A DNA stretch of 64,000 nucleotides from Clostridiales bacterium (GTDB taxonomy: Bacteria; Bacillota; Clostridia; Oscillospirales; Oscillospiraceae), in NCBI GenBank assembly GCA_003150355.1, contig QAMJ01000017.1, forward strand, positions 32,251 through 96,250, given 5' to 3'. Position 1 is the stretch's first letter; each line of letters opens with the position of its first letter. Position numbers and translations under genes: made by a program. This document shows positions 33,657 through 59,341 of this stretch, in pieces. The notes beneath the pieces were generated by a model that searched no databases, was not told where the DNA came from, and saw nothing but the letters and a program-made list of their open reading frames with translations.

Positions 33657-33694
33657 TAAAGCAATAAATATCAGAAAGGATTTGAGGTGTAACA

Positions 33695-34564: not shown

Positions 34565-34606
34565 CGGTATAATTTACCGATATTTCTGCAATGCTTGGTG
34601 AGCCGT

Positions 34607-36148: not shown

Positions 36149-36158
36149 ACAAAAGTAA

Positions 36159-36188
36159 ATACAGACACCCGAAACCGGGTGTCTGTAT
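36159..36188. terminator. bidirectional terminator between the convergent kinase and SorC genes
   Basis: 12-bp stem ATACAGACACCC/GGGTGTCTGTAT, flanked by A-rich and T-rich runs. Confidence 0.7.
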
Positions 36189-36208
36189 AAAAAGCAGTAT
36201 TCTTTATT

Positions 36209-37168: not shown

Positions 37169-37185
37169 AAATCCTCCTGCACTGC

Positions 37186-37200
37186 TTTGCAAATGTAAAC
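37186..37200. promoter_or_regulatory. operator-like motif TTTGCAAATGTAAAC
   Basis: Differs at 1 of 15 positions from 30307-30321. It lies about 18-32 nt upstream of the SorC start codon, in the divergent control region. Confidence 0.45.
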
Positions 37201-37381
37201 TTCACTGATATTATAAAAGCAGCTGCGGGAAATATCAATAAAAATTTCAGCATATAACGTTGGAAACGGCAAAATATTTTGGCAACAGAATCGACACCGG
37301 CGTACAGAATATGCCGGATATAAATTTGAACGAAACAGACTATGTCTTTTTATAATAAAATCTCTGCCAGGAGGACAGTAT

Positions 37382-38923
37382 ATGGATTACTACATTGGAA
37401 TTGATATCGGCACAGGCGGCGTCAGGACGGGCATCTTCGACCGCGAGGGCAAGTCGGTCATCTTCTGCGCCGAGCCTATCGAGCTCAGCATCCCCCATTC
37501 CGGATGGGCCGAGCAGGACCCGGACGAGTGGTGGAGCGCCCTGTGCGCATCATGCAGGAGAGCTATACAGGAAAGCGGCATTGCTCCGTCTCTCATCAAG
37601 GGGCTCAGCGTTGACACAACGTGCTGCACGGTGATGTTCTCCGGGGACGATATGGTGCCGATGCGCCCGGCCATTATGTGGATGGACATGCGCGCGGCGG
37701 ATCAGGCAAAGTTCATGGCGGCTTCCGGCCATGACGCGCTGAAGTATAACGGGTATGGCCCGGTATCGGCGGAATGCCTCCCTGCCAAGGTGCTCTGGGT
37801 CAAGCAGAATGAGCCTGAGATATATAACCATGCGACGCGCGTTTATGAGTGCACGGACTGGATAATGTACAAGCTCACCGGCAGGTACACCGCAAGCCTC
37901 AACTGCGCCTCCTGCCGCTGGTACTACAACAGCCGCGAGGGCGGTTACCCGAAGAGCTTCTACAACACTATCGGCCTTGAGGATCTGATAGAAAAGCTCC
38001 CGCCGGAGGTGCTGCCGATGGGTGAGTGCGCAGGGCTGCTCAGGGCGGACAGCGCAGCCGAGATGGGACTCGTTGAGGGCATCCCGGTCGGCGAGGGCGG
38101 CGCTGACGCATTCGTCGGCGTGATCGGACTGAACGCAGTTGACAACGGGAAGATGGCGCTCATCACGGGCTCGTCCCACCTGCACGTTGCCCTGATCGAC
38201 AGAGAGATGCACAGCAAGGGAATGTGGGGCACCTACCCCGATGCGATCGTTCCCGGAAAATTTATGATCGAGGGCGGACAGACCTCGACCGGCTCGATAG
38301 TGAACTGGATCAAGAATCAGCTCTGCGGCTACTATGCCGTTCAGGCGGAAAAAGAGGGCGTGAGCGTTTACGATATCCTCAACCGGGAGGCTGAAAAGCT
38401 GCCGGTAGGAGCGGACGGGCTTGTCGCGCTGGACTTCTTCCAGGGCAACAGAACGCCGCACGTCGACCCCAACGTCAGGGGCATGATATACGGGCTTTCG
38501 CTCATCCATACGCCGGCGCATATTTACCGCGCGATCGTGGAGAGCATATGCTTCGGCACGAAAGCGATCATTGACCGCTTTGAGGAATCGGGCTTTTCGC
38601 CGAGCGGCATAGTTATCTCCGGCGGCGTTGTGAAGAGCAGGTTCTGGCTCCAGACCCATGCGGACGTCTGCGATGTGCCCATAATCGTCCCGAAAGAGAC
38701 GGAGGCTCCGTGCCTCGGCTCCGCGATACTGGGTGCGGTGGCGGCCGGGGCGTACCCGGATATAGTTACCGCGGCGGAGAACATGACGGGTGTCGACTAT
38801 ATTCTTGAACCGAACCACGATAAGCATCAGGAATATATGTTCTATTACAAGAAATACCGTGAATTCTATGAGCTTGCAAAAGACTGGATGCACGACGTGA
38901 CGGAATACAGCAAGCGTTCCTGA
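37382..38923 (+). CDS. FGGY-family carbohydrate kinase (ribulokinase/pentulose-kinase-like)
   Basis: IGIDIGTGGVRTGIFD, GGADAFVGVIG and SGGVVKSRFWLQTHADV. RBS AGGAGGA. Confidence 0.85.
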   Translation: MDYYIGIDIGTGGVRTGIFDREGKSVIFCAEPIELSIPHSGWAEQDPDEWWSALCASCRRAIQESGIAPSLIKGLSVDTTCCTVMFSGDDMVPMRPAIMWMDMRAADQAKFMAASGHDALKYNGYGPVSAECLPAKVLWVKQNEPEIYNHATRVYECTDWIMYKLTGRYTASLNCASCRWYYNSREGGYPKSFYNTIGLEDLIEKLPPEVLPMGECAGLLRADSAAEMGLVEGIPVGEGGADAFVGVIGLNAVDNGKMALITGSSHLHVALIDREMHSKGMWGTYPDAIVPGKFMIEGGQTSTGSIVNWIKNQLCGYYAVQAEKEGVSVYDILNREAEKLPVGADGLVALDFFQGNRTPHVDPNVRGMIYGLSLIHTPAHIYRAIVESICFGTKAIIDRFEESGFSPSGIVISGGVVKSRFWLQTHADVCDVPIIVPKETEAPCLGSAILGAVAAGAYPDIVTAAENMTGVDYILEPNHDKHQEYMFYYKKYREFYELAKDWMHDVTEYSKRS

Positions 38924-38938
38924 GATCTGGAGGAAAAA

Positions 38939-39595
38939 ATGGCAGCAATTTCGGCGTCTATACTCGGATGCAGACACACTGAGATCGGCAGCGCGGTTCG
39001 CCGCGCCGCCGCAGCCGGGGCAGAATATATACACATCGATGTGATGGACGGGGATTATGTCGAGAACATGACCTTCGGCCCGCAGCTTGTGAATGAGCTC
39101 AGGGAAATAACCGAGCTTCCGCTTTCAGTCCACTTGGAGACGAACCGACCGGACAGGTTCTTCCGCATTTTTGAAAAGACCGCGGCGGACATAGTGACTT
39201 TCCAGTTCGATGCGTGCGTGAATCCCATACACCTTATAAATGTGATACACGCCGCGGGGAAGAAAGTCGGCGTCGGCGTAGGGCCGGCATACGGCGTGGA
39301 GTGCGTCCGCTATATCCTGCCGTATATAGATTTTCTGAACGTGATGAGCGTTGAGCCCGGCTACGGCGGGCAGCGGTTCGAAGAGTCCGTCTATGAAAAG
39401 CTGAGAGAGGCAAAGCAGATGGTCATGGCGCCGGGGCTTGACGTCAGGCTCTGCGTCGATGGGGGCGTGAACACGGAGAACGCACCGCTCCTCGCTGAGG
39501 CGGGCGCGGACATTCTCATCTGCGGCTCGTCGGCATTCAGAAATGACGAGGTTGAAAAGAACATAAACGGACTTATCCGGAGCATCGGAGGATAA
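38939..39595 (+). CDS. ribulose-phosphate 3-epimerase family protein
   Basis: IHIDVMDGDYVENMTFGP, MSVEPGYGGQRF and VDGGVN motifs. 218 aa. Confidence 0.8.
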   Translation: MAAISASILGCRHTEIGSAVRRAAAAGAEYIHIDVMDGDYVENMTFGPQLVNELREITELPLSVHLETNRPDRFFRIFEKTAADIVTFQFDACVNPIHLINVIHAAGKKVGVGVGPAYGVECVRYILPYIDFLNVMSVEPGYGGQRFEESVYEKLREAKQMVMAPGLDVRLCVDGGVNTENAPLLAEAGADILICGSSAFRNDEVEKNINGLIRSIGG

Positions 39596-39642
39596 GCGCA
39601 TATCATAAGTCAGGCGTGTGGTTTTGCCGCAGGAGGGATATT

Positions 39643-40539
39643 ATGGGCAAGACAAGTGAAAATGAACGCAGCAAGGCACTGGAGGGCATCAGGCTTTCAG
39701 CCGGGAATGCCGGGAGACTGACCGTAGGCACGCAGAGCGTACGCACAAGCCCATGCAGGTGCGATAAGGTCAGCATAGTCGTATGCGGCCGTGTCGGATA
39801 TGAAGCGGCGCTCGGCTTCATGCTTGGCGAGAACCTCGCGGATGCAGTCATTGTGGAGCCGGAGCCTGACCCCTATGCGATCATGCGCACGGCAATTTCC
39901 GTAAACTACGGCGACAGGGGCGTACTGCTCATCTGCGGCAGCAGTGAAGAGGAAAAAGGCACCGTCATGGCTGCTGGCGGCCTGCTGGAGGAGAGCGGCT
40001 TCAACAATGAAGTGGTATATGTTGAGGACTGCATTGCGCCCGGCGGCACGGAGCAGATGAACGCGGGCTACTTCCAATGCGTGAAAATAGCAGGGGCGGC
40101 TGCGGCGAGCGGAATGACCCTGAAAGAGACCTATTACACTGTCAGAAAAGCGAGGAACCTTGTGAAGAGCATAAGCGTCAGAGATGCTCTTTCGTCCGGA
40201 GGACGGGGGAGAGATGACGCCGGTGCACTCTTCGGCGAGGGGGCTATGGAGAAGATAGCCTTCCAGCTGCGGCAGGCCTCACGCGCACGCACAGGAGATA
40301 CCGTCTGCACCTATATAAGCGGGGCGGGCGGAGTAACCCTGGCTGAGCTCGGCAGGGCGAATTACCATCTGTACCGCAGCCTCACGGAGCGGGGCATAGC
40401 CGTGCATGACGCGCTGATAAACCCCGTGCCGGTCGGAGCGGCGAGCGCGGATATCGCGATCTCCATGATGCTGCTGCCGGACGAGCTGAAGAAATACTAC
40501 GATATGCCGTGCAGCGCACTTTACTATAATAAGACCTGA
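39643..40539 (+). CDS. Dak1 (DhaK)-domain protein with a degenerate active site
   Basis: ORF 39616..40539, with ATG at 39643 after GGAGGGA. Appears collinear with my recollection of E. coli DhaK. The GGGSGHEP loop reads CGRVGYEA, and the substrate-binding IHGEPG reads GEGAMEK. Confidence 0.7.
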   Translation: MGKTSENERSKALEGIRLSAGNAGRLTVGTQSVRTSPCRCDKVSIVVCGRVGYEAALGFMLGENLADAVIVEPEPDPYAIMRTAISVNYGDRGVLLICGSSEEEKGTVMAAGGLLEESGFNNEVVYVEDCIAPGGTEQMNAGYFQCVKIAGAAAASGMTLKETYYTVRKARNLVKSISVRDALSSGGRGRDDAGALFGEGAMEKIAFQLRQASRARTGDTVCTYISGAGGVTLAELGRANYHLYRSLTERGIAVHDALINPVPVGAASADIAISMMLLPDELKKYYDMPCSALYYNKT

Positions 40540-40712
40540 GCCGGCGGCAGGCATATAAAACGGAATATGTTTTATCCCGCGGTGCGTCCGGGTGCGTCTG
40601 AGCGCGCGGGCGGCCGTGCGGAGATTTACATATATTATAATGGTAGGGCAGAGCGCGTCAGGCGCACTCTGCAAAGCCACCTGAGCAATACATTTTTAAG
40701 GAGAAAAAAGAA

Positions 40713-41552
40713 ATGTTGGTATCATCTAAGGAATTGTATAGAACTTCGCGCGAAAAGAACTTTGCTTTCCCTGCGGCAAATTTTGTGGATCAGCTCTCGG
40801 CTTCGGCGCACATTGCCGCGGCGGAAAAGCTGGGGCTTCCTCTCATCCTCGCCTTTGCGCAGGTGCATCAGCAGTTCCTGTCGTTCGATGAGGCGATCGC
40901 GATCGGCCAATACTACGCCGAAAGCGCAAAGGTGCCCGTCGTGCTCCATTTGGATCACGGCACGGACAAGGACTTTATTTTCAAGGCCATCGACTCCGGC
41001 TTCAGCTCCGTTATGATCGACGCTTCCGCTGAGAGCTTTGATGAGAACGTCCGCCGGACGAAGGAAATCGTGAAATATGCGCATCTGCGCGGCGTCGTTG
41101 TTGAGGCGGAGATAGGCCACGTCGGAGAAGGCTCCGAATACAGCGACCATAATACCAGCAACAATATCTATACAACGGTCGAGGAAGCCGGCAGGTTCTG
41201 CGAGCTTACTGAGGTCGACTCGCTCGCCGTCTCTATCGGCACGGCACACGGCGCATATAAGGGCATTCCCAATATCGACTTCCAGCGCCTTGCGGAGCTG
41301 CGCGCCGCGCTTGAGACTCCGCTGGTGCTCCACGGCGGTTCCTCCTCCGGTGATGAGAACCTGCACAAGTGCGCGACCGGCGGCATCAGCAAGATCAATA
41401 TCTATACCGACTTCGTCCTCAGCGCCTATAAAAAGGTGGAAGAGCGCGGCGGCAAGGATTATTACGCGATCCGCCAGGCAATGAAGGACGGCATGATGGA
41501 GTGCCTTGAGCACTACTACGATGTGTTTGACACACGCAAATACAATGCGTGA
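40713..41552 (+). CDS. class II ketose-bisphosphate aldolase (FbaA/GatY/KbaY family)
   Basis: VVLHLDHG, MIDAS, VEAEIGHVG, SIGTAHG and LHGGSS motifs. 279 aa. Confidence 0.85.
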   Translation: MLVSSKELYRTSREKNFAFPAANFVDQLSASAHIAAAEKLGLPLILAFAQVHQQFLSFDEAIAIGQYYAESAKVPVVLHLDHGTDKDFIFKAIDSGFSSVMIDASAESFDENVRRTKEIVKYAHLRGVVVEAEIGHVGEGSEYSDHNTSNNIYTTVEEAGRFCELTEVDSLAVSIGTAHGAYKGIPNIDFQRLAELRAALETPLVLHGGSSSGDENLHKCATGGISKINIYTDFVLSAYKKVEERGGKDYYAIRQAMKDGMMECLEHYYDVFDTRKYNA

Positions 41553-41558
41553 CGGTGA

Positions 41559-42266
41559 ATGACGATGAAAAAAGTAAGAGTACCTTTTCTTGTAGTTAAC
41601 CCTAAATCGTATCTCTACGGCGAGGAGAGCCTGAAGCTTGCAATGGCGGCGGATCAGGCAGCGGCAGAGACCGGCGTTGAAGTCCTCTTTACGGCGCCGT
41701 TTGCGGATCTGCGTTACATACGCCAGAATACAAGGCACGTGATAGTCACCGCGCAGCATATGGAGTCCCTGTGCCCCGGACGCGGGATGGGGCACGTTCT
41801 GCCGGAATCCCTCAAGGCGGCGGGCGCCGGTGCGGTGTTCCTCAACCATGCGGAGAACCCGCTGCCCGTGTGCGAGCTTGCCGCGTGCATAAAGCGCGCA
41901 AAGGAGCTGGACATGGTAACCGTTGTCTGCGCAGACTCCGTAAAGGAGGGGCTTGCCGTGGCCATGCTCGAACCGGACATTCTTCTGTGTGAGCCGACTG
42001 AGCTGATAGGGACCGGCAAGGTGGCGGACAACAGCTATGTTATCGAGGCCACATCAAAGATCCGCGCGATAAACCCGGAGATACTGGTTATGATCGCCTC
42101 CGGAGTTTCCACAGCGGACGACGTGTATAACGTCATCAGGCTCGGCGCGGACGGCACCGGCGCGACCAGCGGCATACTGAAGGCACCGGATCCGTGCCTG
42201 AGAGTGATGGAGATGGCCAGAGCAATGGCACAGGCAGTAAAGGACAGAGAACAGCAGGGAGACTGA
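41559..42266 (+). CDS. triosephosphate-isomerase-family protein, short archaeal-type
   Basis: 235 aa. LNHAENPL corresponds to archaeal NHSE(R/H)R, and CEPTELIGTG corresponds to archaeal EPPELIGTG rather than bacterial AYEPVWAIGTG. Confidence 0.75.
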   Translation: MTMKKVRVPFLVVNPKSYLYGEESLKLAMAADQAAAETGVEVLFTAPFADLRYIRQNTRHVIVTAQHMESLCPGRGMGHVLPESLKAAGAGAVFLNHAENPLPVCELAACIKRAKELDMVTVVCADSVKEGLAVAMLEPDILLCEPTELIGTGKVADNSYVIEATSKIRAINPEILVMIASGVSTADDVYNVIRLGADGTGATSGILKAPDPCLRVMEMARAMAQAVKDREQQGD

Positions 42267-42268
42267 AC

Positions 42269-42790
42269 ATGAGCGTATACAAAGAGCATCTTAAATTACA
42301 GTCGCACGGGGGTACGCCCTCCTACATAAACGTGACGCCGCAGGTCAGGGCGGCGATAGAGAACAGCGGCATCAAAGAGGGAATATGCGTGGTCATTTCC
42401 CCGCACACTACCTGCGGCGTGTTCTTCGAAGAGTTCGTCCATGACATCACCCCCGAGGGGGACGAGTTTCTTCAGGCAGACCTGAACGATGTGCTGAAAA
42501 AGATCATCCCCGATCATACGGACGCAAGCCAGTTCCGCTACCCCGGCCCCGAGCATTTCAGGATAGTGCGGACATGGCCGAATGCGGCGGATTATCTGCC
42601 GGATGACGATATCAGCGACCTGTATAACGGGGACGCTCACCTCAAGGCGACGGTGATCGGCTCGAGCCAGACCTTTGAGGTCACGGACGGCAAGCTCGGC
42701 GTCGGCACGACGGGGTATGTCTACTTCGTCGATTTCGACCGCACGCGCCCCCGCGAGAGAAAGTGCTCCGTCGTTGTGATCGGAGAATAA
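42269..42790 (+). CDS. YjbQ/UPF0047-family protein
   Basis: ORF 42194..42790, with ATG at 42269 just after the TIM stop. INVTPQVRAAIENSGIKEGICVVISPHTTCGVFFEE is typical of the family. Confidence 0.8.
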   Translation: MSVYKEHLKLQSHGGTPSYINVTPQVRAAIENSGIKEGICVVISPHTTCGVFFEEFVHDITPEGDEFLQADLNDVLKKIIPDHTDASQFRYPGPEHFRIVRTWPNAADYLPDDDISDLYNGDAHLKATVIGSSQTFEVTDGKLGVGTTGYVYFVDFDRTRPRERKCSVVVIGE

Positions 42791-42855: not shown

Positions 42856-43593
42856 TCAGTACCGCACGTCCCACAGGCACAGTCCCTGCGCCGGGGCGGT
42901 GAAGCCCGCATTTTTCCTGTCGCGGCTTTGCAGCGCCGCGGCGACGTTTTCCACATCGCGCTCGCCGCGCCCGGCCTCGATAAGTGTCCCGACGATGATG
43001 CGCACCATATTATATAGAAAGCCGTTTCCGGTAAGCAGGATGCGCAGCTCATCGCCCTGCCGGTCGATCTCTATGCTTTTGAGCGTTCTGACCGCGGATT
43101 TCTTCATGTGCCGGTTCGAGCAGAAGGCCGTGAAATCATGCTCCCCGATGAGCGCCTGCGCTGCACGGCGCATCGCGTCCGTATCGAGCACGCTGGGATA
43201 ACGATAGACGTATTTCCGCTCGAACACATTCGGTGCGTCACTGTTCCATATACGGTAGAGGTAGCCCTTCTCCGTGCAGGAAAGCCGCGCATGAAACCGC
43301 GGCGGCGCTTCTTCAAGCGAGAGCGCGCCGATGTCCTCCGGCAGGTACTGCCGCAACCGCGCGAGAAGCTCCGCACAGCCCATGTCCATCTCTGCCCGGA
43401 ATGAGCAGACCTGCCGCCTTGCGTGAACGCCCGCGTCCGTCCTGCCGCAGCCGGCGATCTCCACCGGCTGACCGAGCAGCCGAGTCAGCAGCGCTTCTAT
43501 CTTTTCCTGTATGGTGTTGCCCGTGTTGCCCTGCTTCTGCCAGCCGCTGTACCGGCTGCCGTCATAGCAGAGCGTGAGCCTGAAATTTCTCAT
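42856..43593 (-). CDS. truA: tRNA pseudouridine(38-40) synthase
   Basis: MRNFRLTLCYDGSRYSGWQKQ..., catalytic GRTDAGVHA, 245 aa. Confidence 0.9.
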   Translation of the reverse strand: MRNFRLTLCYDGSRYSGWQKQGNTGNTIQEKIEALLTRLLGQPVEIAGCGRTDAGVHARRQVCSFRAEMDMGCAELLARLRQYLPEDIGALSLEEAPPRFHARLSCTEKGYLYRIWNSDAPNVFERKYVYRYPSVLDTDAMRRAAQALIGEHDFTAFCSNRHMKKSAVRTLKSIEIDRQGDELRILLTGNGFLYNMVRIIVGTLIEAGRGERDVENVAAALQSRDRKNAGFTAPAQGLCLWDVRY

Positions 43594-43752: not shown

Positions 43753-43781
43753 TTGAAGAATCCCACGGAGAGTGGTAATAT
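43753..43781 (+). promoter_or_regulatory. SigA-type promoter candidate for the 633-aa gene
   Basis: TTGAAG, 17-nt spacer, TAATAT. It lies about 75 nt upstream of the ATG at 43857. Confidence 0.4.
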
Positions 43782-43856
43782 ATTAACAATAAAGTGGGTC
43801 TATGTTTTTTGTGGACCAGGCTCATTGAGCTATAAATCAGAAAAGAGGTTCGAACA

Positions 43857-45758
43857 ATGTATACAGACGCTTATTTGGCAAAGTTCGTTCTGCCCGAGGA
43901 CCTTATGCAGACGCTGAAAAACTCCAACTGCCTCTGCTATCCCGAGACCAAGGAGCAGCTCATCGAGATGTGCTACGGCCCCACGCATTCCTCCAAGTTT
44001 GACGTGTGCTACAGCATCGACGGCAAGGGTCTTGTCAAGGAGGCCGAGGTCGTCCGCTGCAAGAACGGCACTGCCGTCAACTTCATGGAGGACTATATGC
44101 GCCGCCGCGACCCCGACTGCATGCGCATCGGCGACGATCTGCCTACTGACAAGCCGCGTTTTGCCGACGTCTACGGCTATAAGTTCTCCAAGCTCCGCAA
44201 GGAGACTATGGATTGGCTCGGCTCCCAGCGCCTTATAATGCTGCCGTTCCACGCAGGCGGAAGGTATTACGGCTATGACAGCCTTATGATCTGCCCGATG
44301 AACGCCGCGTTCTTTGCGCTGTCGCTGGCAAATATGCAGGGCTTTGTCAGCATCAACGATGTTGAGGACGGCTTCACTCCCCGTGCCATCATCTACGTCG
44401 CCCCGCCCTTCCGTCACACCCACTTCAACGGCAAGCAGGTTGTTGTCCATCAGCGCAGCGAGAACCTGCACGAGGTCTTTGCATATAACCTCTATCCCGG
44501 CCCCTCCGCGAAGAAGGGCGTGTTCTCCATGCTTCTCGACATCGGCGAGAACGAAGGCTGGATAACCAACCACGCTTCCGCTGCGAGACTCGAATCTCCT
44601 TACGAGATGGAGACCGTCTTCATGCATGAGGGCGCTTCCGGCGGCGGCAAGAGCGAAATGCTCGAAGAGATCCACCGTGAGGAGGATAACCGCCTGCTCA
44701 TGGGTATCCACACCGTCAGCGGTGAAAAGTATTACCTGTCCCTCGGCGAGACCTGTAAGATCCACCCGATCGCCGACGATATGATCCTTGCCCACAAGGA
44801 TATGCAGAACAACTCCGGCCACCTCGTCATTGCTGACGCGGAGGACGGCTGGTTCCTGCGCATGGACGGCGATAACTACTACGGCAACAGCCCGGAGTAT
44901 GAGCGCATAAGCATCCACCCGTCAGAGCCGCTTGAGTTCTTCAATATGGACGCCGTCCCCGGCGCGACCTGCCTTATCTGGGAGCATGTCCCCGAGTCTG
45001 ACGGCAAGCCCTGCACCAACCCCCGCGTCATTATCCCGCGCAATATGATCGAGAACATCGTCCCCGGCAATGAGCCGCAGGAAGTCAATGTCCGCTCCTT
45101 CGGCGTACGTATGCCGCCGTCCACGGTCATGGCTCCGAACTACGGCGTCATGGGCATGGTGCAGGTAGTCCCGACCTCTATCGCGTGGCTCTGGCGTCTC
45201 ATCGCGCCGCGCGGCTTCAAGAACCCCTCCATCGCCGATGCCAATGCCGGCAGCGGCCTGAAGGCTGAAGGCGTCGGCTCCTACTGGCCGTTCTCCACCG
45301 GCAAGAAGGTCACTCAGGCCAATATGCTGCTCCATCAGATGCTTGCCTGCCCGAACACGCTGAACATCCTCATCCCGAACCAGCACATCGGCGCATATCA
45401 GGTCGGCTTCATGGGCGAATGGATCACCCGTGAGTACCTTGCGCGCCACGGCGGCACCATCAGGATGAAGCACCTTGTCCCGGCCCGCTGCCCGATCTTC
45501 GGCTACTCGCTCGACGAGATGAAGATCGACGGTCAGTATGTCCGTCAGACTTTCCTGCGTCCTGAGCTCCAGTCTAAGCTGGGCTTCGAGGGCTACGACG
45601 CCGGCGCGAAGATCCTGACTGACTTCTTCAAGGAGCAGCTCAAGCAGTTCATGACCGACGACCTTGATCCGCTTGGCCGTCAGATCATTGAGCTTGTGAT
45701 GAACGACGCTCCTCTGGAAGATTACCTCGCCCTGACCCCGCTCACCAACCTGAAATAA
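43857..45758 (+). CDS. uncharacterised 633-aa protein with an HprK/PEPCK-like P-loop (probably the family annotated as DUF4914)
   Basis: Long ORF with native codon usage. Single P-loop HEGASGGGKSEMLEEI, resembling the HprK/P GxSGxGKSE loop. No TM segment or signal peptide. Monocistronic, between a promoter and a terminator. Confidence 0.6.
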   Translation: MYTDAYLAKFVLPEDLMQTLKNSNCLCYPETKEQLIEMCYGPTHSSKFDVCYSIDGKGLVKEAEVVRCKNGTAVNFMEDYMRRRDPDCMRIGDDLPTDKPRFADVYGYKFSKLRKETMDWLGSQRLIMLPFHAGGRYYGYDSLMICPMNAAFFALSLANMQGFVSINDVEDGFTPRAIIYVAPPFRHTHFNGKQVVVHQRSENLHEVFAYNLYPGPSAKKGVFSMLLDIGENEGWITNHASAARLESPYEMETVFMHEGASGGGKSEMLEEIHREEDNRLLMGIHTVSGEKYYLSLGETCKIHPIADDMILAHKDMQNNSGHLVIADAEDGWFLRMDGDNYYGNSPEYERISIHPSEPLEFFNMDAVPGATCLIWEHVPESDGKPCTNPRVIIPRNMIENIVPGNEPQEVNVRSFGVRMPPSTVMAPNYGVMGMVQVVPTSIAWLWRLIAPRGFKNPSIADANAGSGLKAEGVGSYWPFSTGKKVTQANMLLHQMLACPNTLNILIPNQHIGAYQVGFMGEWITREYLARHGGTIRMKHLVPARCPIFGYSLDEMKIDGQYVRQTFLRPELQSKLGFEGYDAGAKILTDFFKEQLKQFMTDDLDPLGRQIIELVMNDAPLEDYLALTPLTNLK

Positions 45759-45776
45759 GCACAAAACGCATATATA

Positions 45777-45817
45777 ACAAAACTCCCGCCGTGCGTAACG
45801 CACGGCGGGAGTTTTGT
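45777..45817. terminator. bidirectional terminator
   Basis: 19-bp perfect stem ACAAAACTCCCGCCGTGCG/CGCACGGCGGGAGTTTTGT. Confidence 0.8.
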
Positions 45818-45834: not shown

Positions 45835-47016
45835 TTACCGAATTTCTTCAATGACCTTTTTGAACGCGGGGAGGCTGCGGCGGATCATGTCGGGATCGAC
45901 GCAGGTGCTGACGCGGCAGAAGCCGGGGCAGCCGAAGGTATCGGCCGGGACGATAAGCAGGTTCTCGCGCTTTGCGAGCTCAGAGAAAGCTCTCGAATCC
46001 CCATTGGGGGATTTGACCATCATGTAGAACGCGCCCTGAGGCTTGACGCAGTCATAGCCCATCTCGGTCAGTGCGTTATACAGGAGGCTGCGGTTCTGGT
46101 CATATGCCGCAAGGTCGGGGCGCAGAGCCGCGGCGCGGGCAATGACGAGCTGCATCATGGACGGCGCGCAGACATGGCCGCAGGCGCGGGAAGCGCCGGC
46201 GACGGCGGCGAAGAGCAGGGCGCTGTCGGTGACGGTATCGGGGATGCAGACATAGCCGATGCGCTCGCCCGGCATGGAGAGGGACTTGGAGTAGGAATAG
46301 CACACGACGGTGTCGCGGTATATGCTTGGGATAAAGGGCACTACGGCGTTATCGTACACAAGCTCGCGGTACGGCTCATCGGCGATTATATAGATCGGGT
46401 GGCCAAACTCCGCGCTCCTGCGCTCAAGGAGAGAAGCAAGCTCACGCAGCGTCTCCTCGCTGTAAATGACACCGGAGGGGTTATTCGGGGAGTTGATGAT
46501 GACGGCCTGAGTGTGCGGCGTGAGCGCTTGGTCGAGCGCTTCAACGTTTATCTGGAAGCTCTCGGTATCGGGCGCGACCTCGACAAACTTGCCGCCGTTG
46601 CAGGAGACGAACACCTGATATTCCGGGAAATACGGCGCGACGGCGATGAACTCCGCCCCCTGCACCGCGAGCGCGCGTATCACCGCGACGAGCGCGGGAG
46701 CCGCGCCGCAGGTGAAGAAGATATTCTCGGGTCTTATGCTCATGCCGCTGCGCGCACTGAGGTCATCGGCGACGGCGCGGCGCGCTTCCATCGCACCGGC
46801 GGCGGGGGTATAGCCATGCAGGGCGAGGCTGTCGCCCTCCAAAAGCTCGCGGATGATATCCGCGATGGCCGCAGGCGCGGGCACGGAGGGATTGCCTATA
46901 GAATAGTCATACACGTTCTCTTTGCCGACGACCGCCGCCTGACGGATGCCGTATTCAAAAAGCTCGCGTATCTCTGACTTCTTTGTTCCAAGCTGAATGA
47001 AGCTTTCGGAGATCAT
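45835..47016 (-). CDS. class I/II pyridoxal-phosphate-dependent aminotransferase
   Basis: YDYSIGNPSVP, NSPNNPSG and YSYSKSLSMPGERIGY (PLP lysine). The start overlaps the buk stop. Confidence 0.85.
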   Translation of the reverse strand: MISESFIQLGTKKSEIRELFEYGIRQAAVVGKENVYDYSIGNPSVPAPAAIADIIRELLEGDSLALHGYTPAAGAMEARRAVADDLSARSGMSIRPENIFFTCGAAPALVAVIRALAVQGAEFIAVAPYFPEYQVFVSCNGGKFVEVAPDTESFQINVEALDQALTPHTQAVIINSPNNPSGVIYSEETLRELASLLERRSAEFGHPIYIIADEPYRELVYDNAVVPFIPSIYRDTVVCYSYSKSLSMPGERIGYVCIPDTVTDSALLFAAVAGASRACGHVCAPSMMQLVIARAAALRPDLAAYDQNRSLLYNALTEMGYDCVKPQGAFYMMVKSPNGDSRAFSELAKRENLLIVPADTFGCPGFCRVSTCVDPDMIRRSLPAFKKVIEEIR

Positions 47017-48101
47017 TTGTTCTTCCCCTTTCCATCACTTGCGTGATACACATTGGGCTGCTCCTCGCCGGTCAGCATACGCACGCCGCCGAGAGCCAGC
47101 GCCTCCATTTCCGTTTCACCGGCGAGCACGCACACCGGCGCGATGAAGCCGACATAGTCCTTTATCTTGCCCGTCAGAAGCTCCGAGTAAGCGAGGCCGC
47201 CGGTGAGGATGATCGCGTCGCAGTCGCCTTTGAGGACGATGGAGAGCAGCCCTATCGTTTTTGCGATCTGGTATGCCTGCGCGTCGAGGATGAGGGCGGC
47301 GTGTTCGTCGCCGTCCTTTATCATCTGCTCGATAACACGGCAATCGCTCACGCCGAGGTGGGCGTACATGCCGCCGCGGCCGCGTATCTTGCGGCGCATC
47401 TCCTCGTAGGTGTACTTGCCGGAGTAGCACAGCTTTATCATCGAGAGCGCCGGGGCGCAGCCCGCGCGCTCGGGCGAGAACTGGCCGTCGTCATCGCCGA
47501 CGGAGTCGACGATCTCGCCGTGCCGGTGGACGCTTGCGGACACGCCGCCGCCCATATGGACGACGATGAGGTTCATGTCCCTGTAGTTTCTGCCCTGCTG
47601 CTTTGCGTAGCGGATGGCCATGGCGCGGCTGTTGAGCACGTGGCAGAAGCTCTGCCGCTCGATCTCCGCGTAGCCGGTGATCTTGGCAATGTCGGTGAGC
47701 TCGCCCGAGGTCACGGCGTCATAGATATATGCCGGGATACCCAAGGGCTGGGCAAGCTCGCGCGCGAGCAGTCCGCCGAGGTTCGAGGCATGCGGCTGAC
47801 TCAGCTCGTCATCGACAAGGGCGCGGCACAGCTCATCGTCAACGATATAGCCGCCCGTCCTGAGGCCGAACACCAGCCCGCCGCGGCCTATGACGGCGGC
47901 AAGCTCCTTTTGGTCAATGCCGTTTCGCTCCATGAATGAGCGGATGACAGACAAGCGCATGGGGACCTGTTCGGCAATGGTATGGTACTGCTGAAGCTCG
48001 GCGGCGTCATGGTCAAGGCTCTCCTGCACGAGCTTTTCAGCGCCGTCATAAAGGGCAAGCTTCGTGCTCGTGGAGCCGGGGTTTATGATAAGCAGCTTCA
48101 T
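47013..48101 (-). CDS. buk: butyrate kinase
   Basis: MKLLIINPGSTSTKLALYD, HLGGGVS-like VHMGGGVSA, 362 aa. Overlaps the ptb stop. Confidence 0.9.
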   Translation of the reverse strand: MKLLIINPGSTSTKLALYDGAEKLVQESLDHDAAELQQYHTIAEQVPMRLSVIRSFMERNGIDQKELAAVIGRGGLVFGLRTGGYIVDDELCRALVDDELSQPHASNLGGLLARELAQPLGIPAYIYDAVTSGELTDIAKITGYAEIERQSFCHVLNSRAMAIRYAKQQGRNYRDMNLIVVHMGGGVSASVHRHGEIVDSVGDDDGQFSPERAGCAPALSMIKLCYSGKYTYEEMRRKIRGRGGMYAHLGVSDCRVIEQMIKDGDEHAALILDAQAYQIAKTIGLLSIVLKGDCDAIILTGGLAYSELLTGKIKDYVGFIAPVCVLAGETEMEALALGGVRMLTGEEQPNVYHASDGKGKNK

Positions 48102-49015
48102 GCTTTTGCTCCCTTTCCGCCGCTCATGAGCGCGCAGACCAGCAGGGAATTGTACTTCTCTTCAAAGCTTGCGCTTCTGGAATTGAGGGCGATAGGGCAC
48201 TTCGCGCCGATGACGACGCCCGCCATCTTTGCACCCGCAAACTCAATGAGTGCCTTGACCATGATGTTTCCCGCGGACATGCTCGGGACGACGAGGATAT
48301 CCGTCCTTCCCGTGACGGGGCTTTCATAGCCCTTGATCTTTGCCGACTCCGCGTCGAGCGCGAGGTCGAGCGATATCGGCCCCTCGAGAATGCAGCGGCC
48401 AAATTCGCCGTCCAGTGCCGCCTGCTTGAGCGCTGCCGCGTCGACGGTCTCAATGATCTTGGGGCTGACGTTCTCTGCCGCGCAGAGCGCGGAGAGCAGC
48501 GGCTCCTCATAGCCGAGGGCGTGGAACATCTCGACGGCATTCCTGACGATGGCCTTTTTGCCCTCGAGGTCGGGGTTCGGCATCATGCCGCCGTCTGTCA
48601 CGCCGAGGAGCTTGGCATAGCCGGGCACCTCAAGCAGCGCGACATGGGACATTGGCCGCCCGATGCCGATACCGGTCTGCTTGTTCACGACGGCCTTGAG
48701 GATGGTCGCGGTCTGCATCAGCCCTTTTTGCAGGAAGTCTGCCTTGCCGTCGCGGATGAGCTCGACGGCGATGTGCGCTGCGTCCTCGTCCGTGTCGGCA
48801 TTTATGACGGTCGCGGGGTCAATCTCGCAGCCGAGGGTGCGGCCGGCGGAAAGGATCTCGTCAGCATGGCCGATAAGAATATAGCGGAGGATACCCTCCT
48901 GCGCGGCGCGGAGCACCGCTTCGAGAGTATGCCCGTCATGCGCGCAGGCGACGGCGACGGTCTTGGGTTCCGCGCTGCCGACGCATTTGCGCAGGTCTTC
49001 AAAATTGTGGAGCAT
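48098..49015 (-). CDS. ptb: phosphate butyryltransferase (phosphate acyltransferase)
   Basis: 305 aa Pta/Ptb-family protein, immediately upstream of buk. Confidence 0.85.
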   Translation of the reverse strand: MLHNFEDLRKCVGSAEPKTVAVACAHDGHTLEAVLRAAQEGILRYILIGHADEILSAGRTLGCEIDPATVINADTDEDAAHIAVELIRDGKADFLQKGLMQTATILKAVVNKQTGIGIGRPMSHVALLEVPGYAKLLGVTDGGMMPNPDLEGKKAIVRNAVEMFHALGYEEPLLSALCAAENVSPKIIETVDAAALKQAALDGEFGRCILEGPISLDLALDAESAKIKGYESPVTGRTDILVVPSMSAGNIMVKALIEFAGAKMAGVVIGAKCPIALNSRSASFEEKYNSLLVCALMSGGKGAKA

Positions 49016-49037
49016 AGTCGTTCTCCGTTTCTGTGTA

Positions 49038-49619
49038 TTATTTGCCGGCAGCCTCGTGACCTGCGCGGAAAGCGCGCAGGTTCAGCTCCCGGAACTTCTC
49101 CGGTACGGTCTCGGCGATGACGCTCTCCCAGTCGATATCGTCCATGCTGAGCGCCTTTGCCATGCTGCCGAAGAGCACGATGTTCATGCACTTGGCGCTG
49201 CCGAGGCTCTCTGCGATCTCGGCGGCGTTGAGGACATAGCAGCGGAAGTGCTGCTGCATGGCCTCAAGGCAGCCATCGGGGTATTCGCACAGCCCGGCGG
49301 CGATGCTGGAGGAAGCGATCTCATAGTCGTTTATGACGGCGATGCCGTCAGGCTTGAGGAAGTCGGCATAGCGCACGGCTTCCATTTTCTCAAATGCGAC
49401 GATGATATCCGCCGCGCCCTTGCCGATGACGGGAGAATTGACCTTTTCGCCCCAATGCACCTGCGTGGAGACGCTGCCGCCACGCTGGCTCATGCCGTGG
49501 ACTTCGGACATCTTGACATCGTACCCGGCCTTCATCAGGCCGTTTACGAGAACCTTCGCGGTGAGGATAGCGCCCTGACCGCCTACGCCTACCAAAAGAG
49601 CACTCTTAGTGTTTTTCAT
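49038..49619 (-). CDS. iorB: indolepyruvate:ferredoxin oxidoreductase, beta subunit
   Basis: 193 aa. LLVGVGGQGAILTAKVL N-terminus. Follows iorA by 3 nt. Confidence 0.85.
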   Translation of the reverse strand: MKNTKSALLVGVGGQGAILTAKVLVNGLMKAGYDVKMSEVHGMSQRGGSVSTQVHWGEKVNSPVIGKGAADIIVAFEKMEAVRYADFLKPDGIAVINDYEIASSSIAAGLCEYPDGCLEAMQQHFRCYVLNAAEIAESLGSAKCMNIVLFGSMAKALSMDDIDWESVIAETVPEKFRELNLRAFRAGHEAAGK

Positions 49620-49622
49620 GGC

Positions 49623-51374
49623 TCAGTTCTCCTTTCTCGAAATGGCGCCGCGCGGGCACACCTGCGCGCACACCGTGCAGCCGACGCACTGGATGGGGTC
49701 GATGCCGGCCTTCTTATCGCGCACGGTTATTGCCGGGCATGCGACCTTGAGGCACATTTTGCAGCCGATGCACTTATCGGTATCGACAGAGCACAGGCCG
49801 ATATCGTGCTTGATGCGCTTGATGAGCAGGCAGGGGCGGCGCGTGATTATAGCTGCGGGGACCTCGGAGGCGAGGGCGTCCTGCACTGCATTTTCCATCG
49901 CCGTGAGATCCTGCGGGTCGACGATGATTATGTTCTTATAGCCGTAGGCCGCGAGGATATCCTCGATCTTGAGCTTCTCGGCGATATCGCCCTGGAGCGT
50001 TCTGCCGCTGCCGGGGTTATCCTGATGGCCGGTCATGCCGGTGATGGAGTTATCAAGCACGACGGGGATGATGCTGCCCTTGTTGTAGATTATTTCCGCC
50101 GCGCCGGTCATGCCGCTGTGGAAGAATGTGGAGTCGCCAAGGACGCCGAAGATCTTCTTGTGCTGGCCGGTGACGTCAAAGGCCTTAGACATGCCCATGC
50201 CGACGCTGAAGCCCGCGCCCATGCACACGACGCTGTCGAGCGCGTTGAGGGGAGCCGAGCCGCCGAGGGTATAGCAGCCGATATCGCCCGCGACGACGAA
50301 GTCCTTGTGCTTTGCCATCGTATAGAAGAAGCCGCGGTGCGGGCAGCCGGGGCAGAGAGCGGGCGGACGGGACACGGCGGCGACGCCGACGTCCACGGTC
50401 TGCGGCTTCTCGCCGAAGATGCGCTCGCGCAGGAGCTGGGGATTGAGCTCATAGAGCTTGCCGGTCATGGCCTTGCCCTCGCAGGGGATGCCTGCAGCGA
50501 GGATCTGGGACTCCATGAAGCCGTCGAGCTCTTCGATGACATAGAGCTTATCGACCTTGGAGGCAAAGTCACGGATAAGCTCGATAGGCAGCGGGTTTGT
50601 CAGCCCGAGCTTGAGGAAGGAGGTGTCCTCGGGGAAAGCGTCCTTTGCGTACTGATACGCGATGGACGCGGTGACGACGCCGACCTTTCCGCCGTTTATC
50701 TCCATGCGGTTGAGAGGAGAAGCGCAGGCATATTCTTCAAGCGCCTGCATATTCTTTTCGAGCTTGGGGTGATTCATCATCGCGTTTGCCGGGGCGGCGA
50801 TGTTTTTGCGCGGGTTACGCACATACTGAGGCACCGGGCGCTCCTCGCGTGTGCCGAAGGAGACAAGGCTCTTGGAGTGCGCGACTCTGGTCGTCGTGCG
50901 CAGCAGCACGGGCACATCGAACTTTTCGGATATCTCATAGGCCGTGCGCATGAAGTCAAGGCACTCCTGAGAATCCGAGGGCTCGATCATGGCAAGGCGC
51001 GCTGCGCGCGCATAGTGCCGGCTGTCCTGCTCATTCTGGGAGGAGTGCATGCTCGGGTCGTCCGCGACGACGATAACGAAGCCGCCGCCCACGCCGTTGT
51101 AAGCTGCGGTGAACACCGGGTCGGCCGCGACGTTCAGGCCGACGTGCTTCATCGCGCACAGGCTGCGCACACCGGCAAGGCTTGCCCCATATGCCACCTC
51201 GGACGCGACCTTCTCGTTCGGCGCCCATTCGCAGTACAGATCGTCCTTGTACTGCGGGAGCGACTCGAAGATCTCGGTGCTGGGCGTGCCGGGATATGCC
51301 GAGCACACCTTTACACCGGCTTCATACGCGCCGCGCGCAAGGGCTTCATTGCCTGAAAACAGAATTTTTTCCAA
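49623..51374 (-). CDS. iorA: indolepyruvate:ferredoxin oxidoreductase, alpha subunit
   Basis: 583 aa. TPP-binding region GDIGCY...GDSTFFHSG. C-terminal double 4Fe-4S motifs CIGCKMCLKVACP and CVGCTVCAQVCP. Confidence 0.9.
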   Translation of the reverse strand: MEKILFSGNEALARGAYEAGVKVCSAYPGTPSTEIFESLPQYKDDLYCEWAPNEKVASEVAYGASLAGVRSLCAMKHVGLNVAADPVFTAAYNGVGGGFVIVVADDPSMHSSQNEQDSRHYARAARLAMIEPSDSQECLDFMRTAYEISEKFDVPVLLRTTTRVAHSKSLVSFGTREERPVPQYVRNPRKNIAAPANAMMNHPKLEKNMQALEEYACASPLNRMEINGGKVGVVTASIAYQYAKDAFPEDTSFLKLGLTNPLPIELIRDFASKVDKLYVIEELDGFMESQILAAGIPCEGKAMTGKLYELNPQLLRERIFGEKPQTVDVGVAAVSRPPALCPGCPHRGFFYTMAKHKDFVVAGDIGCYTLGGSAPLNALDSVVCMGAGFSVGMGMSKAFDVTGQHKKIFGVLGDSTFFHSGMTGAAEIIYNKGSIIPVVLDNSITGMTGHQDNPGSGRTLQGDIAEKLKIEDILAAYGYKNIIIVDPQDLTAMENAVQDALASEVPAAIITRRPCLLIKRIKHDIGLCSVDTDKCIGCKMCLKVACPAITVRDKKAGIDPIQCVGCTVCAQVCPRGAISRKEN

Positions 51375-51517: not shown

Positions 51518-52441
51518 GTGATATCTTTGACAATGGCGCAGGTCTTATATGTCCTTGAGATAGCGGACTGCCGGAGCATATCCGCCGCGGCGGCGCGGCT
51601 GTATCTGTCGCAGTCGGCGCTTTCGCAGCAGGTGCAGCGGCTGGAGGCGGAGCTTGGCTACACGCTCTTTTCCCGCACACCGCGCGGCCTTACGCTCACA
51701 CCCTCGGGAGAAAAATTCTGCCGCGAGGCGCGGACAGTGGCGGACACATGGCGCAGCTTCTGCGGTAAGGTGCACCCCGGCGGCCAGAGCCGCAAGCCCC
51801 TGCGCGTCGGGCTTGGCGCACGGGTATACTCGAACAATCTTTTTCAGGACGTTGTGCGCTTCTTTGATGAGCACCCGGATATCGATGTGAACTTCGTCAC
51901 GGAGTCGGGGCGCGATATGCTGGCAGGCCTGCGCGACGGGAGCATTGACTTTGCACTGGACAGGCTCCAGGCCGGGGACGAGACGGGGCAGGATATGTTC
52001 GTGTGCGATCTGGTGCATGAACGGCAGTGTCTCATCATGGCGCAGTCCGATCCGCTCGCGTCACGCGAAAGCGTCGCTTTCCGTGATCTGCACGGGAAAA
52101 CGGTGATCTCCGGCCCCAAGGACTCCGCCGAGGACAGGACCCTTAGCAGTATATGCCGCAAATATTCGGTGGAGCCCGGACGCATATACCGCTCGGACGG
52201 CATCGACACTACCATGCGCCTTGTGCGCGCGGGGAAGGGCTACGCCATCGGACCGGAGTCCTTCGGGGAATACTATCAGGTCACGGCCGTGCCGGTGGAG
52301 CCGGAGCGGATAATCTCGCTGAAATTCATATGCATGCAGCACAGCCTGCGCCGCGAGGAGATACAGCTGTTCCGCAGCTATCTGTGCGGCATATGCCATG
52401 AGCGCGGCAGGGCGTGCGCGCAGTGCAGCAATGAGCCGTAA
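51518..52441 (+). CDS. LysR-family transcriptional regulator
   Basis: HTH AQVLYVLEIADCRSISAAAARLYLSQSALSQQVQRLEAELG. The start is ambiguous: GTG 51518, TTG 51527 or ATG 51533. Confidence 0.85.
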   Translation: MISLTMAQVLYVLEIADCRSISAAAARLYLSQSALSQQVQRLEAELGYTLFSRTPRGLTLTPSGEKFCREARTVADTWRSFCGKVHPGGQSRKPLRVGLGARVYSNNLFQDVVRFFDEHPDIDVNFVTESGRDMLAGLRDGSIDFALDRLQAGDETGQDMFVCDLVHERQCLIMAQSDPLASRESVAFRDLHGKTVISGPKDSAEDRTLSSICRKYSVEPGRIYRSDGIDTTMRLVRAGKGYAIGPESFGEYYQVTAVPVEPERIISLKFICMQHSLRREEIQLFRSYLCGICHERGRACAQCSNEP

Positions 52442-52497: not shown

Positions 52498-52683
52498 TCA
52501 GACGATCCTTCTGTCGCGGACCTGAGAATCATAGTGCTTATTGAGCAGGGGACGGACGACGTAATAGATGAGCTTGTTTTCGCCGTTGGTCATGTACAGG
52601 CCGAAGGTGACGACGAAGAACACCAAAGCTATAACGACGAGCTTGCCCAGAAGCTTAAAGAGGAACTTAAAGAATTTCTTCAT
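52498..52683 (-). CDS. small (61 aa) single-TM protein, last gene of the dehydratase-like operon
   Basis: MKKFFKFLFKLLGKLVVIALVFFVVTFGLYM... It lies 18 nt downstream of the 535-aa gene on the same strand. Confidence 0.45.
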   Translation of the reverse strand: MKKFFKFLFKLLGKLVVIALVFFVVTFGLYMTNGENKLIYYVVRPLLNKHYDSQVRDRRIV

Positions 52684-52701
52684 AAACGCTTTCCGCCTTT
52701 C

Positions 52702-54309: not shown

Positions 54310-54312
54310 ATT

Positions 54313-55509: not shown

Positions 55510-55584
55510 CTCTTTTGAAATTTTTCCGTTTTCCGCAAGGCAAGCGTGCCGCAGCGCATCGCAGGCGCGCTCGCTTATGACAAA

Positions 55585-59228: not shown

Positions 59229-59341
59229 GCGGTGCCCTCCTGAAAGCAGAGATACTATAAATTTGAAAATACGTTCCAAATATACACGCATAATAACAAA
59301 AAATCAAGGGCAATACCGCGCATGGTACTGCCCTTATGATC

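Follow-up and report, generated by a model that had tools for sequence, protein, structure and literature searches.

DUF4914 proteins are remote homologues of the phosphoenolpyruvate carboxykinases with a predicted PEPCK-type active site

Phosphoenolpyruvate (PEP) carboxykinases (PEPCKs) are counted in a 2025 paper as three types, which use ATP, GTP, or pyrophosphate (PPi) (PMC12547629). We describe a gene from a pig-gut Oscillospiraceae bacterium that appears to extend this set. It lies at 43857..45758 on the plus strand of a 64,000-nt stretch of contig QAMJ01000017.1 (hereafter, the window), begins with ATG, and encodes a 633-aa protein of the Pfam family DUF4914. We find that this protein is a remote PEPCK homologue that belongs to none of the three known classes and lies at roughly the same distance from each. 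Profile alignments and a predicted structure show a PEPCK fold and a PEPCK-type catalytic set retained across the family. On balance, we favor the reading that the gene product is a soluble enzyme, expressed well and constitutively, that forms a fourth, uncharacterised branch of the PEPCK superfamily and carries out PEPCK-type chemistry; we hold this view with somewhat more confidence than doubt.

A first-pass annotation of the window, made from the sequence alone, had provisionally assigned the protein to DUF4914 and knew of no function for the family; both statements stand. A hidden Markov model search returns a full-length match to DUF4914 (PF16260; E = 7.1e-303, 1005.8 bits where the cutoff is 25.7, all 612 profile positions covered), and the same model matches 30/30 diverse members. 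NCBIfam has no model for the window protein, a single-sequence search of it against PDB sequences gave no match, and no characterised family among Pfam, NCBIfam, and the PEPCK models claims it. In the searchable literature, we found no paper on DUF4914 or PF16260, nor a relevant one on a PEP-carboxykinase-like protein or a new PEPCK class. The family itself is already catalogued, and its remote similarity to PEPCKs may be recorded in database clan or superfamily assignments.

DUF4914 is large yet very slowly evolving, because its matches form at least 8000 clusters at 90% identity and 671 representatives at 50% identity, most of the latter being fragments. By source labels, members occur in Oscillospiraceae, Candidatus Limivicinus, Hydrogenedentes, Verrucomicrobia, Chloroflexota/Anaerolineales, and Bryobacteraceae, with further carriers in Bdellovibrionales, Thiocapsa, and Oscillatoria; the family also reaches Acidobacteria, cyanobacteria, and Proteobacteria and spans many phyla, with 61-67% identity between them. 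On one contig (CAVFGM010000157.1), whose bin is labelled “Bacteroidaceae bacterium,” the DUF4914 protein matches that of the window at 100% identity and truA does so at 93%; since all other close relatives are Oscillospiraceae, this bin label is probably wrong.

Kinship with the PEPCKs is evident from both profiles and fold. Against all PDB sequences, the family profile finds PEPCKs only: the best match is the Thermus ATP-PEPCK 1j3b (E = 3.3e-9, over two stretches, with part of the C-terminal domain covered), followed by the Anaerobiospirillum (1ytm, E = 5.8e-7) and T. cruzi (1ii2, E = 5e-5) enzymes, with weaker matches to E. coli PEPCK (E ~0.05) and to GTP-PEPCKs (near E = 1.5). A 30-sequence family profile repeats the PEPCK-only outcome. 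Alignment of the family by hhalign gives 93.6% probability (E = 2.2e-7) with E. coli PckA and 95.3% (E = 2.4e-8) with a bacterial GTP-PEPCK. The first-pass annotation had proposed a comparison of folds. An AlphaFold2 model of the window protein (predicted local distance difference test, pLDDT, 92.7; predicted template modelling score, pTM, 0.91) displays the two-domain PEPCK fold, an N-terminal domain and a C-terminal domain with the P-loop nucleotide-binding site. In Foldseek searches of the PDB with this model, the top 50 matches are all ATP-, GTP-, or PPi-PEPCKs (E ~1e-23, template modelling score, TM, 0.60-0.78), at 11-16% identity over ~640 aligned columns. In a viral structure library, the only significant matches are giant-virus PEPCKs.

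For the active site, we number residues against E. coli PckA (MG1655), with registers from the profile search and hhalign, and count conservation in 263 full-length DUF4914 members at 25-87% identity. Twelve mapped PEPCK catalytic positions (R84, Y213, K219, K220, H239, S261, K265, S266, D307, D308, R335, and R390) are each at least 99% conserved, and the single residues matched to PckA in Table 1 are kept in 262-263 of the 263 members. The P-loop, which lies in HEGASGGGKSEMLEEI (residues 257-272 of the 633-aa protein), had been put forward as the only recognisable catalytic signature. This proved too narrow: the protein also holds Y-x-G-x-x-K-K-G, a catalytic His, a kinase-2 D-D, and N-x-R. 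The loop itself is kept among homologues, with S261, G262, and K265 in every member, E267 in all but one (262/263), and the whole G-x-S-G-x-G-K-S-E at 99% or above; S261, G262, K265, and E267 are invariant in alignments that reach down to 25-28% identity. A metagenome scanner independently chose YPGP[SG]xKKG and G[AP]SG[GS]GKSE as the most conserved stretches of DUF4914. R82 and R84 are each found in 262/263 members; the equation of R84 with PckA R65 is drawn from motif similarity, as the E. coli alignment begins at residue 102. One substitution is consistent, in that the phosphate-binding Lys (PckA K288) is an Arg (R335) in DUF4914.

In PEPCKs, K213, H232, and D269 bind the catalytic Mn2+, K254, T255, and D268 serve the nucleotide-Mg2+, and R65, R333, and Y207 hold oxaloacetate (OAA) or PEP and CO2. 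Membership tests with a published list of PEPCK functional motifs (PMC12547629) find the PEP/OAA-binding domain, the kinase-1a P-loop, and the kinase-2 Asp-Asp with the Lys/His/Asp ligands of a predicted metal site. A pseudoenzyme or a simple P-loop NTPase is disfavored, because neither would need the whole catalytic set. We infer that the DUF4914 enzyme performs a metal-assisted phosphoryl transfer coupled to enolpyruvate. The P-loop Lys and Ser, with Mg2+, would hold the transferred phosphoryl group; a second metal on the Lys220/His239/Asp308 triad would stabilise enolpyruvate; and R84, R390, and Tyr213 would hold the C3/C4 acid and CO2. The likeliest reaction would be oxaloacetate + phosphoryl donor <-> PEP + CO2 + acceptor, and the alternative would be a very close variant at the PEP/oxaloacetate/pyruvate node.

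Several observations weigh against a PEPCK assignment. Among the curated Pfam models, PEPCK_ATP (PF01293) touches 1 of 30 members, at E = 0.12, and gives no match for the window protein at E <= 1, and PEPCK_GTP (PF00821) matches none of the 30 at E <= 10. Identity to every PEPCK class is only 11-16%. The adenine-stacking Arg (PckA R449) is without counterpart in DUF4914, and the PckA T455 position is variable (A in 117, T in 111, and S in 20). Taken by itself, the C-terminal half is not significantly similar to ATP- or GTP-PEPCK (<1% hhalign probability); the C-terminal domain is nevertheless present in the predicted fold. The family has invariant residues of its own (E62, R82, R186, H198, E267, F479, and P507-G512; also G549), which suggest a substrate or cosubstrate pocket unlike that of known PEPCKs. 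The predicted clustering of the catalytic residues in three dimensions is read from alignment registers only. Where a canonical PEPCK coexists, as at the loci L084 and L100 described below, a second enzyme for the same reaction is perhaps not needed. Finally, the neighborhood associations each occur in few lineages, and none occurs in the window's own.

With regard to the phosphoryl donor, the earlier prediction of a soluble, nucleotide-dependent, carboxykinase-like enzyme stands in part. The carboxykinase-like part is strongly supported, with the two-domain fold and the full site both present. For nucleotide dependence the case is not made, since the contacts that bind the base in ATP- and GTP-PEPCKs are not recognisable. 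Assignment of a donor from the sequence was tried and set aside: the C-terminal half is unmatched, and a likeness to the GTP-type WPGFGEN, found by eye, is not conserved in the family. Relative to E. coli PckA, the stretch from the P-loop to the Asp-Asp motif carries an insertion of ~25 residues, which gives a GTP-PEPCK-like spacing. The low-confidence loop of the model (Table 1) is bordered by the near-invariant N456-P-S and E471-G-x-G474 (at least 90% conserved) and may be a mobile active-site lid.

The gene is organised much as first described. The 633-aa ORF is confirmed, and it sits between truA (PseudoU_synth_1; 42856-43593, minus strand) upstream and, downstream, a convergent operon for an aminotransferase, a butyrate-kinase-like protein, phosphotransbutyrylase (PTB), iorB, and iorA. 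The promoter proposed for the gene is borne out by a -35/extended -10 footprint in 10 related genomes; all ten keep T, G, T, A, A, A, and T of the extended -10 element (TGnTAAnAT). A consensus scanner overlooked this promoter (8/12 matches), which the footprint reveals; by this phylogenetic criterion, the predicted promoter is real. The intrinsic terminator is likewise as proposed, with 19 pairs and a T-run. In the ~70-nt leader, a search with Rfam found no riboswitch or other RNA element; no Rfam family reaches its gathering score anywhere in the window. By hydropathy analysis, the protein has no transmembrane segment and no signal peptide, in agreement with the first-pass annotation (maximum 19-residue hydropathy 1.41; grand average of hydropathy -0.29), and is predicted to be soluble.

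The DUF4914 gene sequence occurs in many gut metagenomes, pig and other, and in at least 14 metatranscriptomes. Contigs from four gut metatranscriptomes cover 43817-45759 almost completely, and one begins at 43817, 3' of the -10 element. In these four, truA and the upstream operon are without contigs, and no contig runs from the DUF4914 gene into a neighbor; the 20 kb 5' of the gene is almost silent, and most of the surrounding genes go undetected. Contig depth measures expression poorly; the pattern of RNA contigs over the gene alone fits the well-expressed, monocistronic gene that had been surmised from its appearance. Against seven relatives, the gene has a pairwise ratio of nonsynonymous to synonymous substitutions (dN/dS) of 0.05-0.15. 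At the same loci, the DUF4914 protein is ~85% identical and the neighboring truA only 65-70%. The DUF4914 protein is under strong purifying selection.

Gene neighborhoods elsewhere were drawn from 80 environmental loci found with a family-consensus query and from earlier loci, 91 in all, representing 69 lineages at 85% identity; neighboring ORFs were clustered within 6 kb of the DUF4914 gene. Adjacency to truA, in divergent orientation, is kept only within the Limivicinus-like lineage, and housekeeping genes make up the recurrent neighbors in Oscillospiraceae, namely truA and, as identified by eye, a PotA-like ABC ATPase and a Ddl-like ligase. A functional link to the window's own neighbors was considered and rejected, as neither the aminotransferase/buk/ptb/ior operon nor the sugar cluster is conserved beside DUF4914. 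Single loci from other phyla have no neighbor common to them. With respect to co-occurrence with canonical PEPCK, PPDK, and PPi-PFK, a single genome scan yielded nothing beyond close relatives.

In other lineages, central metabolic genes recur. An L-lactate transporter of the major facilitator superfamily (MFS) lies near DUF4914 in ~6-7 lineages; it scores 350.8 bits with the NCBIfam equivalog SfMCT, whose cutoff is 320. Adenylate kinase is a neighbor in 3 lineages, and a beta-carbonic anhydrase gene lies 3' on the same strand in 2 lineages, with one more locus at a distance of 7 kb. A canonical GTP-PEPCK gene adjoins DUF4914, co-directionally, in two independent lineages (Table 1). None of the recurrent partners, including the MpsC-domain and ~290-aa proteins described below, is found in the window or the Oscillospiraceae loci, and neither holds a canonical PEPCK. 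Taken together, the neighbors (PEPCK, pyruvate kinase, lactate uptake, adenylate kinase, and carbonic anhydrase) suit a role at the PEP/pyruvate/oxaloacetate node. Since a canonical GTP-PEPCK gene adjoins it in some lineages, DUF4914 is probably no simple duplicate of GTP-PEPCK, and it more likely differs from that enzyme in cosubstrate, direction, or regulation. Small proteins with an MpsC domain (PF10057) are encoded 5' on the same strand at seven loci (L107, L115, L140, L144, L161, L166, and L169). A link to CO2 or bicarbonate by way of this neighbor was dropped, as MpsC does not function as a component of the MpsAB bicarbonate system (PMC6689103).

The most distinctive neighbor is an orphan protein of ~290 aa, encoded 14-73 nt 3' of DUF4914, mostly on the same strand, at 14 loci from several independent lineages; its hosts include Verrucomicrobia, Thiocapsa, and Oscillatoria. 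Its family counts 483 members, all “hypothetical,” without a Pfam, NCBIfam, or PDB sequence match. With three distant partner genes taken as the starting point, each proved to lie directly 3' of a DUF4914 gene. In Thiocapsa, an MFS transporter gene comes after the partner, and in Oscillatoria and an unclassified metagenome contig, pyruvate kinase follows at gaps of 4 and 28 nt; DUF4914, partner, and pyruvate kinase look like a three-gene operon there. The invariant residues of the partner resemble a protein-kinase core (a G-loop-like GATGAVYRV, VVK, FEEF, DHKxRH, and DYE). Its model (pLDDT 82, pTM 0.84) matches only protein-kinase-like folds, namely ULK1/2, Myt1, WaaP, Rio2, and PknB, with modest scores (E ~5e-4, TM 0.3-0.4). 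We regard the partner as a probable divergent kinase, one with either a regulatory role toward the DUF4914 enzyme or a place in its pathway. At two loci (L096:4550-7939 and L109:4-3251), DUF4914, the kinase-like partner, and a beta-carbonic anhydrase are co-directional, and the anhydrase ORF overlaps the end of the partner.

Other readings of the gene keep the fold and change the chemistry. A kinase of PEPCK fold might act, without carboxylation, on another small molecule; examples would be further 2-oxo or 2-hydroxy acids (pyruvate, lactate) and phosphorylated or sugar acids. Consistent with this, the invariant E62, R82, R186, H198, and E267 are absent from PEPCKs, a canonical PEPCK coexists in some lineages, and the frequent neighbors are an L-lactate transporter and an orphan kinase-like protein, not C4-acid enzymes; the window gene also adjoins a sugar/polyol catabolic cluster. 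That cluster, however, is not a conserved neighbor, and carbonic anhydrase is encoded 3' on the same strand in two lineages. Furthermore, the carboxylate/CO2-side residues (Tyr213, R84, and R390) and the enolate-stabilising metal triad are invariant, which argues against a simple hydroxyl kinase, as such an enzyme would not require that set. We regard this alternative as unlikely. A compact PEPCK that depends on inorganic phosphate (Pi) and PPi (PEP + CO2 + Pi <-> OAA + PPi) seems rather improbable. Run in a cycle with a nucleotide-dependent PEPCK, its net reaction would be NTP + Pi -> NDP + PPi. The query-normalised TM is highest for the PPi-PEPCKs 8e1u and 6k31 (0.68-0.73, versus 0.60-0.68 for the ATP and GTP types), which is a weak hint at best as a pointer to the donor. 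The lack of recognisable ATP/GTP base-binding contacts and the directly adjoining GTP-PEPCK gene in two lineages point the same way, and the P-loop wording is that of HPr kinase/phosphorylase (HprK/P), which uses PPi and Pi. We also count in its favor that PPi-dependent glycolysis is reported to draw on a PPi source still to be identified (PMC8863071). Yet the known PPi-PEPCKs are ~1100 aa long with extra domains, have the lowest identity of the three classes, and yield no sequence-level match in the PDB profile searches. DUF4914 keeps, in highly conserved form, the C-terminal domain that binds the nucleotide in ATP- and GTP-PEPCKs; an adenylate kinase neighbor in three lineages hints at adenine nucleotides; and no evidence links DUF4914 carriers to PPi-dependent glycolysis. 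A fuller version, in which a compact enzyme takes Pi/PPi, or a further unusual donor (ADP or polyphosphate, for instance), in place of ATP/GTP and forms a PPi-making PEP/oxaloacetate cycle with a canonical PEPCK, in many lineages under the control of a dedicated kinase-like partner, is a speculative proposal that we doubt.

Two further readings fare far worse. The first-pass annotation had likened the P-loop to those of both HprK/P and PEPCK; the PEPCK kinship is upheld by profile and fold, and the likeness to HprK/P is limited to the wording of the loop. That GASGGGKSE matches GxSGxGKSE and that HprK/P and PEPCK share a P-loop domain fold are the points in favor of a protein kinase/phosphorylase acting on a protein substrate in the manner of HprK/P. 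This reading is largely refuted and very improbable: HprK/P is absent from the top 50 fold matches and from the PDB profile matches to E = 10, the Pfam Hpr_kinase models match 0/30 members, and DUF4914 has a full N-terminal PEPCK domain and small-molecule-binding residues, which HprK/P lacks. For a non-catalytic relic of a PEPCK, regulatory or structural, nothing specific speaks beyond the coexistence of a canonical PEPCK in two lineages; catalytic positions conserved at 99% or above in 263 sequences from many phyla, the low dN/dS, and good transcription make it scarcely credible, and conservation refutes it. We thus return to PEPCK-type chemistry as the preferred reading of the DUF4914 gene.

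Table 1. Features of the DUF4914 gene, its product, and associated genes. Window positions are given for plus-strand features; L numbers denote environmental loci. Residue counts are out of 263 members.
Feature	Position	Strand	Evidence or remark
-35 element TTGAAG	43753..43758	+	TTG invariant in 10 related genomes, intergenic DNA otherwise diverged
Extended -10 element TGgTAATAT (TG 43773-43774, TAATAT 43776-43781)	43773..43781	+	17-nt spacer from -35
Ribosome-binding site AAGAGG	43843..43848	+	8 nt 5' of ATG; GAGG-like core kept in upstream alignment
Coding sequence, DUF4914 / PEPCK-superfamily enzyme (predicted)	43857..45758	+	Pfam, profile, fold, dN/dS, RNA contigs
R82-R-R84-D-P; R84 = PckA R65 = rat GTP-PEPCK R87, putative PEP/OAA-binding Arg	44100..44114	+	GTP-PEPCK hhalign register
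Y213-P-G-P-S-A-K219-K220-G, PEPCK-specific motif; Y213 = PckA Y207, G215 = G209, K219 = K212, K220 = K213	44493..44519	+	hmmsearch and hhalign; 262-263/263
H239-A-S-A; H239 = PckA H232, predicted Mn2+ ligand	44571..44582	+	His in 262/263
Kinase-1a P-loop G259-A-S-G-G-G-K265-S266-E267; S261 = PckA S250, K265 = K254, S266 = T255	44631..44657	+	PckA G248..K254-T255-T256
Kinase-2 I-A-D307-D308 = PckA D268-D269; GTP-PEPCK GDDIAW	44769..44780	+	Asp 263/263, Asp 262/263
E329-D-G-W-F-L-R335 = PckA E282-G-G-C-Y-A-K288; E329 = E282, R335 = K288	44841..44861	+	E329 263/263; R335 262/263
N388-P-R390 = PckA N331-T-R333, predicted substrate-binding Arg; N388 = N331, R390 = R333	45018..45026	+	Asn and Arg 263/263
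Low-confidence loop, residues 455-470	45219..45266	+	pLDDT ~60, sole such internal stretch
P507-N-Q-H-I-G512, family-specific, at ATP-PEPCK NTGW (nucleotide-binding region)	45375..45392	+	P507 and G512 263/263
Intrinsic terminator: 19-bp stem (12 G-C), 3-nt loop, T-run	45777..45817	+	RNA contigs stop ~45759
Canonical GTP-PEPCK	L084:5749-7605, L100:11206-12573		Co-directional with DUF4914; PF00821 in L084
Kinase-like partner genes	L117:9309-10193, L096:6453-7295, L126:5656-6522, L131:5541-6584, L173:6001-6960, L174:6001-6909, L175:6001-6915		
Pyruvate kinase	L174:6914-8350, L175:6944-8377		Co-directional with DUF4914 and partner

The remainder of the window offers observations of its own. A sugar/polyol catabolic island lies 5' of the DUF4914 gene at 32340-42790; it encodes TRAP DctM, a pair of FGGY kinases, a SorC-type regulator on the minus strand, a ribulose-phosphate 3-epimerase-like protein, a Dak1-like protein (matched weakly and in part by Pfam), a class II aldolase, a TIM-like protein that is atypical (E no better than 1.4e-19), and UPF0047, and presumably resembles tetritol/erythrulose-type pathways. 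Because the listed GTG start of the UPF0047 ORF at 42194 falls within the TIM-like gene, translation probably begins at the ATG near 42269. Within 22-42 kb, the sole other spot with metatranscriptome contigs is 23800-24500, a stretch without long ORFs that holds a 101-aa hydrophobic ORF (minus, 23775-24080) and a 165-aa ORF (plus, 23995-24492). On the other side, the operon at 45835-51374 (minus) comprises the aminotransferase, butyrate-kinase-like, phosphotransbutyrylase, iorB, and iorA genes, the last two for an indolepyruvate/2-oxoacid:ferredoxin oxidoreductase. It is a typical amino-acid-to-acyl-phosphate fermentation module, is transcribed in 2 of the 4 metatranscriptomes, and has a LysR regulator beside it at 51518-52441. 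Three ORFs, at 52534-55518 (994 aa), 59336-60823 (495 aa), and 61085-62953 (622 aa), have no Pfam match at E <= 1e-5; the candidate 994-aa ORF overlaps two long minus-strand ORFs, 52702-54309 and 54313-55509.

If the preferred reading is right, DUF4914 would add a fourth branch to the PEPCKs, one that is well transcribed in animal guts. An enzyme at the PEP/oxaloacetate/pyruvate node would mean that metabolic models of many gut, rumen, and environmental bacteria miss a reaction, and miss it at the main branch point of glycolysis, gluconeogenesis, and C4 acids. The family may also offer a lead on how PPi-dependent anaerobes manage their pyrophosphate (PMC8863071). A PPi-making cycle, if true, would be a candidate for the long-sought non-biosynthetic pyrophosphate source in anaerobes with PPi-dependent glycolysis.

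Comparison with named systems places DUF4914 in relation to each. With HprK/P, it shares the P-loop wording GxSGxGKSE, which we take to be the HprK/P motif, including the Glu after Lys-Ser; unlike DUF4914, HprK/P is about half the size and is without the PEPCK N-terminal domain and the PEP/OAA-binding residues. With the PPi-PEPCKs (Actinomyces 6k31, Propionibacterium 8e1u), it shares the core fold and a place outside both nucleotide-specific classes. In contrast to these enzymes of ~1100 aa with extra domains, DUF4914 has 633 aa; identity is 11-12%, there is no sequence-profile match, and the TM normalised on the target is only 0.40-0.43.

The GTP-PEPCKs (PF00821; 2fah and M. tuberculosis 4wie) resemble DUF4914 in fold (E = 1.2e-23, TM 0.65-0.71) and in the spacing from P-loop to Asp-Asp, and they give the best hhalign probability, in a register that spans the N-terminal substrate Arg and the DDxxW...NPExGxF region. 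They differ in that identity is 12-15%, the Pfam model does not match, and no guanine-binding region is recognisable in DUF4914. ATP-PEPCKs (PckA; PF01293; E. coli 1aq2 and Thermus 1j3b) are typically encoded by stand-alone genes, as is DUF4914. They share its two-domain fold (Foldseek E = 8e-24, with a target-normalised TM of up to 0.78) and all mapped catalytic residues, and are the only class reached from DUF4914 by plain profile-sequence search. Unlike them, DUF4914 is ~90 residues longer, has 14-16% identity, and escapes the curated Pfam model. In the P-loop, DUF4914 reads GASGGGKSE, against GLSGTGKTT in ATP-PEPCK and PSACGKT in the GTP-type enzyme of L084.

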